64,000 nt of DNA from Mobula hypostoma (taxonomy: Eukaryota). The notes beneath the pieces are model-generated. The model was not told the DNA's origin. It ran no database searches and was given only the letters and a program-made list of their open reading frames with translations. A program made the position numbers and the translations under genes. The stretch is taken from assembly GCF_963921235.1 (NCBI RefSeq), contig NC_086097.1:134356001-134420000 (forward strand). Reading direction: 5' to 3'. Shown in pieces: positions 4,022-11,074 of the stretch (its first letter is position 1; each line of letters starts with the position of its first letter).

Positions 4022-5690
4022 CCTTCCTTCCTTCCTTGTGCCCTTAACTCCTGCTGGAGTCCTTGGGGCACCGTCATGACAAGCTTTGCACCAGTCTGTT
4101 CCATCTGTCACAGTTGTGTGCCAGAGACTGGGTCATTGCAAATGTTTTCCCTGTCCATTCTTTAATGTTGTCCATCCATCTTTTCCTCTGTCTACCTCTC
4201 CTTCTTTCCCCCTCCACAGTTCCTTGTAGAATGGTCTTTGCAAGGCCACTGGATCTTGTTACGTGGCCGTACCATCTCAGCTTTCTTTTCTTCACCATTG
4301 TAAGAAGGTCTTCATGGGGGCCAACGTGGTGCTGGATGGCCTTGTGGACCTGCTCGTTTGTGATGTGGTCCAAGTAGGAGATGCCCAAAATGTTGTGATA
4401 GCATCTCATTTCCAATGCCTGTATCTTCCTCTGTAGCTCTGCTGTGAGGGTCCATGTCTCACATGTGTACAGGAAGATGGAGAATACCAATGCATGCAGG
4501 AGTCTGATCTTGTACTTTATGGTAATGTTGCTGTCCCTCCACATTGTCTTGAGTTTGGATAGTGCAGTCATTGTCTGTGTGGTTCTTGCCAGGACCTATG
4601 GTCTTGATCCTTCATCACTGATGATTGCCCCCAGGTATTTGAACTGCTGCACCGTCTCAAGTTTCTGACTACGGACTGAGATGTCTGTTGTGATGGCGCC
4701 ATTGACATTTGCCATGAGCTTGGTTTTCTCAGCACTTATTTCCATTCCAAACTTTGTGGAGGCTCTGTCAAGATGGCTGACCAGGTGGGCCAGTTCGTCC
4801 TCTTGTCCTGCAAGTCCATCAATGTCGTCAGCAAATCTTAGGTTTGTGATGTTCCTCCCTCCGATGCTGACTGTGCCCACATGATCTTCAAGTAAACACT
4901 CATGATTCGTTCCAGGAAGACATTGAAGAAAGTGGGGGAGAGGAGGCAGCCCTGACAGACTCCTACAGAAGTATGGAACCACTCCCCGATAGTGCCCTGA
5001 GCGAGCACTGCACTGGTTGCTTTGGCGTAAAGCCGGTGGATTGTATGAATCAGCTTATGCCCCATGTTGAATTTCCTCATGGTGGCCCATAAGGCATCAT
5101 GCCAGACTCTGTCAAACGCCTTCTTGAAGTCTATGAAGACATGGTAGAACTCTCTCTGGTGCTGGAGGTGTTTCTCACAGAGGGTGCAGAGGTTGAAGAT
5201 CTGCTCAGTGGTGCTTTTGCCCTTACAGAAGCCTGCTTGTTCCTCGACAATAATGTCTTCTGCCTGAGGTCTTAGTCTGTTCAAGATGATTCTGAGCATT
5301 ACCTTGCTTACATGGCTGATCAAACTGATGGCACGGTAATTCACAGTGTGCTTGAGGAGAATCAACAAGCCAAAAAACAGCCGGCTGAGATTCGACCTTG
5401 AAAAACTGAAAGACCCCGCCACCTCTGAAGAATTTCAGGTAGCAAATGGGGGGAAGTTTGCACCAATACTCCTCTTTGATGAAGACCTGGAGACCACCAT
5501 AAATAACTTTAACACAGTGATGACGGAAACAGCAAGCAAGATTCTGGGGAAAAGCCACCGCAGGTCTAAACCATGGGTCACTAACAAGATACTGGATATG
5601 TGTGATACAAGAAGGAAATTAAAGAAAGATAAAAACACAGCAGAGGGAAGAACAGAATACAGGAAAATCAACAAGGAAATCAGAAGGGAA
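4022..5690 (-). mobile_element. RTE-clade LINE, 5'-truncated, with inverted 5' segment (5347-5690 on +)
   Basis: RT motifs NYRAISLISHVSKVML, EEQAGF, FIDFKKAFDRV, GVCQGCLLSP and LRFADD; C-terminus KTILQGTVEGERRRGRQRKRW; (GGAA)n tail at 4022. Flanked by atatatttaat (4011-4021) and atgtatttaat (5691-5701). Confidence 0.9.
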
Positions 5691-6585: not shown

Positions 6586-6665
6586 CCGATTCACAGCAAA
6601 ATATAGAGAGGAAGCTACTGTCAAAACATGATAGAGAGAATGTCAGAATCTGAGCGGGTAAATAT

Positions 6666-6837
6666 CAACAAATAAAGTCAAAGGCTGTTAAGCTATCAGT
6701 GAAGAGTTACTGGTAGCGCAAATGTTCTCTTGTTGCTTATTTAACTGTGAGGCTCCATCTTTGGAGCTGATTGTATTAACAAGGCAGGAAATCTGAGTTT
6801 TGCAAACAGAGTGCTTCTATATTGAATTACAGGTAAC
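6666..6837 (+). repeat. Left copy of ~172-bp direct repeat flanking the HERO-like element (putative long TSD)
   Basis: Aligns to 10902-11074 with 13 substitutions and one 1-nt indel by manual count. Confidence 0.92.
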
Positions 6838-6906
6838 TTGCATCATGCCCTGGGATGCTCTCTACAGTTACCTGATGAAGTGACCATAGCCTTGGCCAAG
6901 ATCAGA

Positions 6907-6976
6907 TTGTCAGGTGGTGCCCAACCTTCGTAGAGTGTTTTGACCCTTTACCACTACACTGTCTAGTTGGTGGGTC
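6907..6976 (-). ncRNA. Candidate hammerhead-like pseudoknotted RNA in the HERO 3' UTR (core degenerate in this copy)
   Basis: Four helices: gaccc/gggtc, ccaact/ggttgg, agtgt/acact and gtggt/accac. A GTA triplet, cAAAAC (~GAAAC) and CTGACAA (~CUGANGA) sit in hammerhead register. Confidence 0.45.
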
Positions 6977-8273
6977 AACAGTGGTGGCCAAGTCACTGCC
7001 CATCTACTCCTGACTCCCAGCTCAACTCCTCTCGCCTGCTCCATATCCAGCAAAAGGCTCTTTCTGCTTCCTCCACAATCCTTTGAGCTGCTTGGTTCTT
7101 GCTCTTATCATTAAGACCCAGCGCAGACAGCAACCTCCATGCCAAACTTGCTGGGAACACTGTAAGGCTGATCTCCACAGGGAAAAACCACGTCTGCAAT
7201 CCTTTGTCCTTGCACCCCAGGACTAAGGACTGGTAATTCAGGGCCTACCTCTCCTGAGCCTCCTTGCATCCTTCATCCCATGGTACTGTGAGCTTCACCA
7301 GGATGATTTTCTTGCTTTTGGTGGTCCACAGTACAATGTCTAGTCAAAGTGTGCTTCCCACATCGACCCTCATCTCCCATGATTTCTCAGTTTGCTGCAG
7401 GTTGGATTCAGGCCTCTTTGATATGACTGGTGTGGCCCTCTGCTTGATGAAAATGACTATCCTGTCTGCCAGTTAGTTCATTTTCACTCCTCTCCCACTT
7501 CAGTGTGTCAGCAAGGGATAGCTGGACCTTGTCGTGGCACCACCTATACCATCCTTGTGTTAAAGCTGTTTTACATTCTGACAGTGTGTGTGCCAGCAAA
7601 CCCCAATGACCAAAAAGCTTACAGTTAGGGTCTTCTCTTAGCCCCCATGTGTGCAGCTGTGATGGTGTACGGAGAGTGTCATACATGGACCACAGGAGGA
7701 GAGAAATCCAGAAGGGCTCCAATCTCCAAAGCTCTGCCCAAGTGATCTTACGCTTGGGAAGATCCCATTTTGTCTAGCCACCCTGTGACCCCAACTCCAT
7801 TGCCTTCAATACCCACCTTTCATTCTCACGGTTCCATACCTCTGCCTGGACCATGTCACGCCTACCACTTGCACTTGCACTCCCCCATCGTTGAAAGTGT
7901 GCTGAACTAAGGCCTTGTCGTCCCAGGCGTGAGTTGTCAATGATGTCTCTCAGTTGCAGGGAGCTCACTGCCTGATCAATGGCCGAGCTGGCGGCCCACT
8001 TTCATCTGATCTTGTTGTGATTCCTGCTTGGTTTATTGGCTTGTCATTGGAGCCCCAGTGTTAAGACAACTCTACACTTTGCCACCTTGAACTCCTCCAC
8101 TACTGATAACAATGGGAGCTGTAGCTGGTCTGATCTTATGTAGAGGCTCACTGAAGAAAAACTTGGGGGGATCCCCAGCCACCCCCACAGGTGCTTGTTA
8201 ACTTTCCTCAATGCCTTCTACAGTGGTCATACAGAACTCATACACCGTGAAAAGCCAGAGCAGCCTTGGTAGT

Positions 8274-8822
8274 AAAACACACAAAATGCTGGAGGAACTC
8301 CACAGGCCAGGCAGTATCTATGGGAGTACAGTCGACATTTCAGGCTGAGACAGGTGTGGGGAGGGGAGGGAGAAACACAAGGTGATAGGTAAAACCAGAA
8401 GGGGGAGAGGGAGAGGTGAAGTAATGAGCTGGGAAGTTGATTGAAGAAAGAGGATCAGGGCTGGAGAAGGGGAAATCTAATAGGAGAGGACAGGAGGCCA
8501 TGGAAGAAAGAAAGGGGAGGAAGAGCTCCCAGAGGGAGGTGATGGGCAGGCAAGGAGATAAAAGGGGTGGGGGAATTGGGGGGGGGGGCATTACCGGAAG
8601 TTCGAGAAATCAGTGTTTATGCCATCAGGTTGGAGGCTACCCAGACAAATATAAGGTGTTGTTCCTTCAGCCTGAGTGTGGCCTCATTGCAAAAGTAGAG
8701 GAGGCCATGGATAGACATATCGGAATGGGAATGGGAAGTGGAATTAAAATGGATGGTCCTCCAGCATATTGTGTGCATTGCTTAGCTTTCTAGCATCTGC
8801 AGATTTTCTCTTGTTTGTGATT
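8274..8822 (-). mobile_element. Penelope-like 3' fragment with inverted terminal repeat, nested in the HERO RT/thumb region
   Basis: Reverse-complement match to 54960-55425. Flanked by gcagccttggt (8260-8270) and gcagacttggt (8823-8833). Host reading TWLYQHG|LPRLLW resumes across it. Confidence 0.75.
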
Positions 8823-10654
8823 GCAGACTTGGTTGACCATGTTGGTACAGCCATGTCTTAAATTTATCAGGAAGTCCAGTTTCGTCGGTCTTCTTCAGCC
8901 ATTCTTTGGTCTGCTTTAGTGTCAGAGATGTTGGTGCTGTCTGTCGTTGCTGCATTAAACCACTTTCTAAGACACTACTGGGTTGTCCTCTATGAATGGA
9001 ATGACTTCTCCCTGTACTTGAAGACTGAACTTGCTACTAAACTTGCCCTTTTACATCACCATGCATCTGGACTTCCTAGCCTTGAAGGTCATCCTAGCCC
9101 ATATAGCTACGTTGTCCAGGGTTTCCAATACCTATCTTGCTTGGACATAGGTTACAGTGGTTACTGTGATGTCATCCACAACCCCCACCACCGACTATTG
9201 CAGGCTGTCTAATGCTGGGCTTCAACACTGGGCCTCATGTTACGTCTGCTGCTGCTGATATGAGAAGGTTCATACCCATGACAAACAAGATGAGGGAGAT
9301 GGTGCCGCCGGCTGGAATCCTTTTCTGGAGGTCTTGCCACCTGGTTGTAAAGTGGGCTGAAGTGATGTGTAGCTTGAATCCTCTTAGGTAGCTGGTGATC
9401 ATGTCTCGTGTTACTGGTAGGATATAGTAGTGGATGAGGACATGTGGAATTGATCTGCAGGCACTGGCTAGGTCTAACCAGACAATTACTAGTTCATCTT
9501 TCTTCTGCTTGGCCTTGCGGATCAATTGGCTGATTACTGAGGTGTGTTCAAGGCACCCAGAAAAACTCGGAATGTCACCTTTCTGGATGGATGTGTTGAT
9601 ATAGTGGTACTCCATTAAGTGCCTTCTCGCAAACACCGAGAAGAATATCTTGCACACCATGCTAGGGAGGGAGATTGTCCTAAACTGGGTGATTGTAGAG
9701 GAATCTTCTTCCTTGAGAACAAAGCATCCTTCAGCTATTTTCCAGCTTGGTGGGATACCTAGAGCCTTTAGTCCAAATCTTCCTCATTATCTTCCACAAC
9801 CTCCGGAGGAGTTTTGAGCATTTCTCACATACCTTTTGGTCCTGGGGTGCGGATAACTTTGCTCTCTTGAAGATATCCTAGACCTTCTGCCACGTTCAAC
9901 TCAGTTTCTGGGATTTGGAGGACTGTTGGAATTGAATTCTAGTCCCTGATTCCGATGGGGATCACTGTCTGATTCCCACAGAAATTCTTCCACCTCCTGC
10001 TTTGAGCTGGTTAGGGTGTCAGACTTTTGCTGGCTGAGAAGAGCCTTGGTGAACCTGAATCGGTTTTTAACAAACTGCATTCTCCTCTCTTTCTCCCTTC
10101 TTCGCACAGCTGTCCCACAATTTGCTGGTCAGATCTTCAATACCTGCTTTTTCATCAGGCGAACTGCTTTTGAATTGTTTGTTCAGGGTCTTACCTTGCT
10201 TCTCAGCTGGTGAATCTCCCTTTCTTTCCTATTTGGTTGCTATGATGGTTTAAGATTCCCTTTCTTCTCCATTGGGCCGAATCGCTCTAGCAAAGTTGAA
10301 CACAACGGCTGTGAGGGAGTTGATTTATCTGTAGACAGGTCCTGCCAGGGTAGCTTCGAAGATCCAATCCAGGTCATCATCAAACTGCCGCCAAGATACA
10401 TTGTCCAATCCTCTCTTTCCTTGAAGAATGGAATAGGGTGTCAGAAGAGGCTCTTGGTCTCTTCTTTGGCACTGGGGCAGCTCAGGTGCGGAGAGATCTT
10501 CAGTTCTGTGGGGTGCTTCCTGGCTGGGGTTCTCCATTGTCTCACCAGATGTTGAATCCACGTGTTGCACCTGAATTGCCTTCATTCCACAGTTGGACCT
10601 GCTATGGTGTATCTTGAGGCCTTTGATGTTTTCACAGATTTTGCCGCAATGGCA

Positions 10655-10841
10655 TAAGAACATAAGAAATAGGAGCAGGAGTAGGCCATCTGGCTCGTCA
10701 AGCCTGTTCCATCATTCAATAAGATCATGGCTGATCTAGCCATGGAGTCATCATCTCCACCTATCTGCCTCTCCCCATAACCCTTCGTTCCCCTACTATG
10801 TAAAAATCTATCCAACCTTGTCTTAAATATATTTACTGAAC
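10655..10841 (-). mobile_element. CR1 3'-end fragment nested in the HERO zinc finger
   Basis: taagaacataagaaataggagcaggagtaggcc is the CR1 tail, as at 19078. TSD atggca at 10649-10654 and 10842-10847. Confidence 0.85.
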
Positions 10842-10901
10842 ATGGCACTTTGCAATGAATGCCTCCCCAGTCACTGTTGTTTGCTTGAGCCTTCTCGTTA
10901 C

Positions 10902-11074
10902 CAATAAATAAAGTCAAAGGCTGTTAAGTTTTCAATGAAGAGCTACTGGCAGCACTGAATGTTCTCTTGTTGCTTATTTATCTGTGAGGCTTCATCTTTG
11001 GAGCTGATTGTATTAACAAGGCAGGAAATCTGGGTTTTGTAAACAGAGCGCTTCTATATTGAATTACAGGTAAC
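10902..11074 (+). repeat. Right copy of ~172-bp direct repeat
   Basis: Matches 6666-6837; both copies end in ...gaattacaggtaac. Confidence 0.92.

Follow-up and report, generated by a model that had tools for sequence, protein, structure and literature searches.

Engineering of R2-group elements as tools for gene insertion is under way, and R2 elements with an HDV-like ribozyme at their 5' end are known. Hammerhead ribozymes with a rearranged order of their core blocks have been described and validated as types SGC (HRIMA-1 and variants), CSG and GCS, and were shown to cleave (Eckert 2023, PMC10085705). In the main text of that study the three blocks are assumed to be uninterruptible, and the SGC motifs come from metatranscriptomes, none being placed in the genome of a known organism except for one bacterial GCS motif; further variants may be listed in its supplements. 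For Penelope-like elements, the consulted part of a preprint proposes that a ribozyme-cut monomer circularises and is reverse-transcribed for more than one round (bioRxiv 10.64898/2026.07.22.740005). HERO elements are described as largely non-specific in their insertion, in the portion of PMC4640811 consulted. In a literature search, with Repbase reports and subscription journals outside its scope, HERO elements were nowhere credited with a hammerhead, with a terminal duplication or with circular RNA, and the consulted portions of an R2 review and of the Utopia paper (PMC4640811) make no mention of such features.

A hammerhead-like motif in a LINE of Mobula hypostoma

The DNA analysed, called the window below, is a 64,000-nt stretch of contig NC_086097.1 of Mobula hypostoma. 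A first-pass annotation had pointed out segments of a hammerhead-like core on its minus strand, directly 3' of an ORF stop, and on reading the letters all of them were found where it had placed them. Two helices, the closing helix P0 and the hairpin Pa, had been overlooked, as had a 2-nt deletion that follows CUGANGA in this copy. The features are, from the ORF towards the 3' end of the element:

6993..10898, minus strand: decayed body of a LINE with reverse transcriptase (RT) and restriction-like endonuclease, 5'-truncated, with unrelated repeats inserted
7001..7012, minus strand: P0 5' strand, made of the last ORF codons; its partner is the strand after CUGANGA (covariation)
6977..7000, minus strand: hairpin Pa (7000-6994 with 6983-6977), which holds the ORF stop and continues straight into G10.1 (covariation)
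6995-93, minus strand: ORF stop
6972..6976, minus strand: stem II 5' strand from G10.1 (gaccc, 6976-72), displaced upstream (covariation)
6965..6970, minus strand: 5' strand of helix P3b (ccaact, 6970-65), the extra helix of the first-pass annotation, which lengthens stem III (covariation)
6955..6964, minus strand: 5' part of block S, with an internal-loop strand, the stem III 5' strand and the GUA triplet (agtgtA, 6960-55)
between 6955 and 6954, minus strand: predicted cut, by analogy with hammerheads
6950..6954, minus strand: stem I strand 3' of the predicted cut (gtggt, 6954-50), 97.6% of cells paired
6947..6949, minus strand: linker of 3 nt between stems I and II, like that of the type-SGC hammerheads of the PMC10085705 main text
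6933..6946, minus strand: block G, with the stem II 3' strand (gggtc, 6946-42), (G>A)AAA (in AAAAC, 6941-37) and the stem III 3' strand; G12 lost by CpG decay
6927..6932, minus strand: 3-nt bulge and GA(A), a kink-turn-like loop between stem III and P3b (by eye)
6921..6926, minus strand: P3b 3' strand (ggttgg, 6926-21; covariation)
6907..6918, minus strand: block C without its stem II strand, with the stem I 5' strand (accac, 6918-14) and CUGAC(G>A)A (CTGACAA, 6913-07); G8 lost by CpG decay
6897..6906, minus strand: P0 3' strand, damaged in this copy by a 2-nt deletion and substitutions
6838..6896, minus strand: remainder of the element's 3' end, up to the family's common end point, which in 5'-complete copies is joined head-to-tail to the element's 5' start

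The earlier claim of a new hammerhead topology stands in part. The reversed block order has already been published as types SGC, CSG and GCS (PMC10085705, main text); what is new is the break between A9 and G10.1, inside block C, which is filled by two helices, and the eukaryotic LINE host. Like the published types, the motif has the cyclic order S, G, C, a short linker between stems I and II, a pseudoknotted core and the full set of core nucleotides. Unlike them, all three of its inter-block links are intact and the chain ends inside block C, whose stem II 5' strand lies upstream and covaries there, in place of the contiguous block of those types. The motif is thus no member of the SGC/CSG/GCS series while apparently working like them. 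Possible exceptions are L119, L120 and L132, in which the G after CUGANGA could supply position 10.1 (by eye). Furthermore, the extra helix of the published types joins the far sides of stems I and II, whereas P3b forms a nested extension of stem III, with 1-3 nt connecting its strands to stems II and I. The motif sits in a LINE of animal genomes, the SGC motifs in metatranscriptomes.

Other assignments were tried and rejected. Plain type SGC with stem II after CUGANGA was ruled out, the strand after CUGANGA being engaged in P0. Type CSG by way of upstream CUG..GA-like letters of family A was ruled out as well, these letters forming hairpin Pa and not being conserved. Finally, a type I, II or III hammerhead would have the order C-G-S and stem II right after CUGANGA; the order found is S-G-C, with the following strand in P0.

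The host, which the first-pass annotation had taken for a HERO-type retrotransposon, is a LINE encoding an RT and a restriction-like endonuclease, with zinc finger, RT, zinc knuckle and endonuclease motif. The ORF pieces of the window have RVT_1 and zf-RVT matches, below the Pfam cut-offs; the endonuclease motif, of the PD-(D/E)xK type, was recognised by eye. A near-intact relative (L203) has one ORF of 1166 aa, with R2 proteins as its best PDB matches (E 6e-24). This one-ORF layout of zinc finger, RT, zinc knuckle and endonuclease motif fits a non-LTR retrotransposon of the R2 group, encoding a restriction-like endonuclease. From its motifs we provisionally take the element to be of HERO type. 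Its dispersed, non-specific insertion fits the description of HERO in the consulted portion of PMC4640811.

The window copy itself is almost certainly inactive, as had been supposed, with G8 and G12 gone and 2 nt deleted after CUGANGA. The annotation had read both departures from the core as CpG decay, which is borne out by sibling copies, among which an intact G12 and G8 are common. Among 30 copies chosen by the upstream fragment alone and counted by eye, 21 keep G12 (14 TG, 6 CG and 1 with a gap) and five have CA; position 8 is covered in 28 of them and is G in 19. The decayed CAA form is the commonest one (14/30) among copies chosen for likeness to the window copy, because this sample is biased by its selection. 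Folding of the window copy was no better than that of shuffled sequences (z -0.54), and three intact relatives folded at z -2.0 to -3.6, in both cases with a program that cannot form pseudoknots.

The window copy is flanked by a ~175-bp direct repeat of non-element sequence (6663-6837 and 10899-11074; 87-96% identical), which begins exactly at the 3' end of the copy and is possibly an unusually long target-site duplication. No flanking repeat of at least 18 nt was listed around four other long copies. Downstream of the element, at 4596-5434 of the window on the minus strand, lies a piece of another LINE, unrelated to this one, that includes an RT domain.

Range and covariation of the structure

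A protein search revealed four families in the M. hypostoma genome, which have very different 3' ends and all keep the motif. A metagenome scan yielded 80 loci, whose proteins share 32-78% identity with the query. Of these, 59 were matched by a covariance model of 45 sequences, always in sense orientation and downstream of the ORF; 18 of the matches lay outside the training set, many of them near-duplicates of training sequences. One further match was weak (E 0.19). Since 13 of the 21 misses have less than 200 nt of downstream sequence, the motif is carried by 59 of 67 assessable relatives. The eight true misses, with at least 250 nt downstream, are L127, L141, L146, L154, L160, L163, L169 and L170, of which L127 breaks off inside the motif. 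Relatives of the element were not found in viral contigs, and in prokaryote genomes only in two short contigs.

As the first-pass annotation had predicted, standard descriptors miss the motif. Rfam gave no match in the 64,000-nt window. In 18 loci, among them the eight motif-less relatives with long downstream sequence, it reported no ribozyme at E <= 1; a swap for another ribozyme class was therefore not found in these relatives. Since standard descriptors and Rfam miss this motif, other interrupted ribozymes may hide in repeats.

The annotation had named a lack of covariation between families, and retention of CAAAAC and CTGACAA by the relatives, as grounds for giving up the structure. All six helices (stems I, II and III, P3b, P0 and Pa) covary, including the upstream strand of stem II, and CGAAAC and CUGAYGA are restored in the relatives. 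The alignment comprised 45 sequences (41 metagenome loci and the 4 genome families), chosen with the pattern GAAA...CUGANGA; near-duplicates and decayed loci were omitted, and 41 of the 59 motif-bearing metagenome loci were used. Over the 22 pairs of stems II, P3b, III and I, 91.2% of cells are paired, against 61.4 +/- 1.2% after shuffling and 37-47% when partners are slid by 1-3 columns; the shuffles take no account of relatedness, which the slid controls retain, and the effect is large. By stem, 97.6% of cells are paired in stem I, 89.2% in stem II and 92.3% in stem III. Double changes occur at 20 of the 22 pairs, and at 14 of the 16 pairs of stems I-III. The covariation score is 0.706 versus 0.193 for shuffled alignments, none of 500 shuffles reaching the observed value.

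Because GAAA and CUGANGA were used for picking, their invariance in the 45 sequences is circular. In 20 loci chosen by protein likeness alone, GAAAC is intact in 19 and CUGANGA in all 19 that cover it, and P0, Pa and stem II are paired in 91.1% of cells (65.7% when shuffled). Hammerheads cleave after NUH, with H not G, and leave N7 free. These rules are obeyed in the 45 sequences: position 17, which played no part in the picking, reads A (19 sequences), C (14) or U (12) and never G, U16.1 is kept in 44, and N7 takes all four bases. The pair 10.1-11.1 is G-C or G-U in 40 of 44 aligned sequences. The relatives thus have the hammerhead core of CUGANGA, GAAA and NUH with H not G, flanked in register by stems I, II and III, which covary; the register of the junctions that had been assigned from a single decayed copy is upheld. 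Judged by the comparative evidence, which decides here, the motif is a real and widespread RNA structure and not a product of chance.

P0 starts at the base next after A9, its other strand continues into Pa, and Pa continues into G10.1 without a spacer in the closer families; the two helices therefore replace the bond between A9 and G10.1. In each of the four genome families, both either overlap the ORF stop or lie right next to it. In L119, L120, L124, L130 and L132 a G stands right after CUGANGA and could pair with C11.1 (by eye); these variants are possible intermediates with the break one step later, taking the rest of stem II from upstream. In a kink-turn, a bulge of 3 nt precedes G-A and A-G pairs that stand in tandem. 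A candidate for this arrangement is seen in the closer families and is absent in several distant ones (L120, L131, L138 and L161; by eye).

On these sequence data, self-cleavage of the motif is quite probable. If the blocks cannot be interrupted, as the main text of PMC10085705 assumes, the break in block C may slow or abolish cleavage. A rival reading is a non-cutting hammerhead-like fold. It would be a recognition structure for the RT, the template would be linear from junction to junction, and the duplication described below would result from jumping of the RT from the 5' end back to the 3' end. Engagement of the strand after CUGANGA in P0 agrees with such a fold, and RTs of the R2 type bind folded 3' UTRs and can jump between templates. 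We regard it as unlikely: stem II is formed through the upstream strand and covaries, and a binding fold has no obvious need of a position 17 without G and of a full catalytic core across proteins that are 32-78% identical.

Head-to-tail duplication and the predicted cut site

Copies were counted by eye in samples that each held the 30 with the highest scores. An RNA that was cut and stayed cut should give rise to copies with a start or an end at the site. Yet not one of 30 copies picked by the downstream fragment starts at the predicted cut, and not one of 30 picked by the upstream fragment ends there, which would be expected of a non-cutting fold. No RNA run was listed as carrying the sequence, and contigs of four sequencing runs showed neither joins nor clusters of ends, a result that has no bearing on expression or cleavage. 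Two of four near-full-length copies carry the motif once more, ~3,640 nt away on the upstream side of the ORF, where their 3' end is present a second time as a direct repeat; the other two are truncated before the 5' start. This head-to-tail terminal duplication had been overlooked in the first-pass annotation. It places the motif at both ends of the unit and so explains the ~115 nt that are kept beyond the cut site.

In family D, 30 copies were chosen solely for containing the 5' start. Of these, 26 run across one common junction into their own 3' end, 20 of them reaching beyond the predicted cut and six starting between cut and junction; the other four start at or after the junction. For families A and B, 25 of 29 copies cross the junction, 13 pass the cut, 12 start between cut and junction and four at or after the junction; the thirtieth (L244) was dropped for its tandem 59-nt repeats. 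Together, of the 59 copies with a preserved 5' start, 51 extend upstream across the head-to-tail junction and 33 cross the predicted cut. A ends are joined to A starts and B ends to B starts. The upstream duplications taper smoothly from a few nt to ~850 nt (10 copies followed further), none exceeding ~850 nt among the 30 family-D copies; such a taper would be given by drop-off of the RT and not by a promoter. In the metagenome, the zinc finger of a next unit follows the motif in three of four distant elements, although collapsed assemblies can favour such joins.

The starts of these copies bear on the non-cutting fold as well. Only two of 59 begin at the cut (L216 and L256), which is chance level, and eight begin within ~8 nt of the junction, several times the background rate. 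The latter cluster, at or just after the junction, speaks for a linear junction-to-junction template; it would fit an RNA 5' end there, or a stall after one full round. In 51 copies, however, the junction has a constant length and no added bases, unlike the products of end-to-end jumps. Seven of the 59 5' boundaries cluster at the CUGANGA/P0 edge, a weak hint that was noticed by eye and post hoc.

The duplication could also arise by self-targeting, with new truncated copies inserting exactly before existing full-length ones and the RNA motif being irrelevant. Tandem insertion is known in other target-specific LINEs (Utopia, PMC4640811, portion consulted), and tandem units are present in metagenome contigs (L167/L168). 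Most 3' ends, however, have unique flanks, yet 51 of 59 5' starts are preceded by another copy, which in every case belongs to the same family, and HERO is described as largely non-specific (PMC4640811, same portion), which makes self-targeting highly improbable.

The terminal anatomy of the element is Penelope-like. As far as the consulted parts of PMC4209133 and of the preprint (bioRxiv 10.64898/2026.07.22.740005) go, it shares with Penelope-like elements and non-LTR retrozymes a ribozyme in a terminal direct repeat and head-to-tail partial tandems, as well as tolerance of an insertion between positions 9 and 10.1, two ribozymes per competent copy and a proposed circular template with reverse transcription beyond unit length. 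Their ribozymes are of type I (circular-permutation) or minimal dimeric, whereas the HERO-like motif has a monomeric rearranged core. Moreover, Penelope-like elements combine a telomerase-like RT with a GIY-YIG nuclease, while the element studied here has an R2/L1-like RT and a restriction-like endonuclease motif. The ribozyme-bearing terminal partial tandem is present, the telomerase-like RT and GIY-YIG nuclease are absent, and the element thus works like a Penelope-like element in its terminal anatomy without being a member. With R2 it shares the RT and restriction-like-endonuclease LINE type and an RNA end thought to be made by a ribozyme (PMC13580325, portion consulted). It differs from R2 in its ribozyme class, in having the ribozyme after the ORF and on the 5' side only via the duplication, and in not being rDNA-specific. 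A linear ribozyme-made 5' end in the style of R2 would not allow 33 of 59 5'-start copies to extend past the cut.

A possible circular-RNA cycle

The conserved core, the read-through of the cut site, the fixed junction and the tapering duplication find their simplest account in the model for Penelope-like elements. We tend to favour the reading that the motif is a hammerhead with SGC/CSG connectivity that defines the element's RNA unit, the monomers being circularised and reverse-transcribed more than once around. The chain would end between A9 and G10.1, with P0 and Pa standing in for that bond. A genomic copy with the terminal duplication would supply two motifs one unit apart, and a transcript through both would be cut twice to release a unit-length monomer. 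Stems I and III would keep the two ends of this monomer together, and either the ribozyme or a host ligase would join them into a circle. The RT of the element would then prime ~85-115 nt downstream of the cut, at an internal site that is always the same, copy across the closed cut site and round the ORF, and often pass the point where it began. This over-run would give the head-to-tail duplication of variable length that is needed for the next round. Cleavage, ligation, the circle and internal priming are what we infer from the arrangement of the copies, and the head-to-tail start of the fullest ones suggests copying from a ribozyme-made RNA ring. The widest formulation is an evenly balanced proposition: a widespread clade of R2-group LINEs may replicate via a circular RNA of ~3.6-4.4 kb that codes for protein. 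A hammerhead with a seventh connectivity, its chain ends lying within the CUGANGA block, would make this circle, and target-primed reverse transcription would begin within it and go round more than one time.

The ribozyme might instead be active and regulated without any circle, trimming or destroying some of the transcripts, either as 5' processing for translation or, because P0 and Pa overlap the stop codon region, for the removal of untranslated RNA. Integrated copies would then stem from uncut RNA, and the duplication from template jumping or longer-than-unit transcripts. The conserved core and helices, the position of P0 and Pa at the ORF stop in four families and the read-through of the site by all integrated copies agree with this. 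So does L203, in which the long ORF opens right behind P0, within the upstream duplication; what looks like a 3' tail may therefore be an mRNA leader. Regulated cleavage alone, however, leaves the fixed-junction, smoothly tapering duplication of most 5'-complete copies unaccounted for, and we consider it decidedly doubtful.

If the circular-RNA reading is true, a hammerhead connectivity is added that the sole systematic treatment assumed away, rearranged hammerheads move from anonymous metatranscriptomes to animal genomes with thousands of datable copies, and an R2-group LINE gains a Penelope-like life cycle. A circular-template model has been proposed for a decade, and a direct test is made possible by a young family with copies 97-99% identical, a near-intact ORF and a fixed junction. 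A HERO-type construct cut at the apparent 3' end would be without the second motif, and perhaps without the true ORF start.

Several minor observations concern the arrangement of the copies. Whole elements are found in tandem on single metagenome contigs, namely L167/L168, with a period of 4,365 nt, and L093/L094, which belong to different subfamilies. In L244 (G000:C45:87651762-87652358) the 5' start of the element has been multiplied into tandem repeats with a period of 59 nt. Two internally deleted family-D copies (L229:973-1058 and L236:2254-2339) have the motif within ~1 kb of the 5' start; these mini-elements could be derivatives of a non-autonomous, retrozyme-like kind. An 18-nt motif directly behind the head-to-tail junction is conserved across distant elements (L094, L095, L096, L098, L101 and L116) and occurs twice, 60 nt apart, in family D (L203:2040-2117); it may be a second RNA signal.
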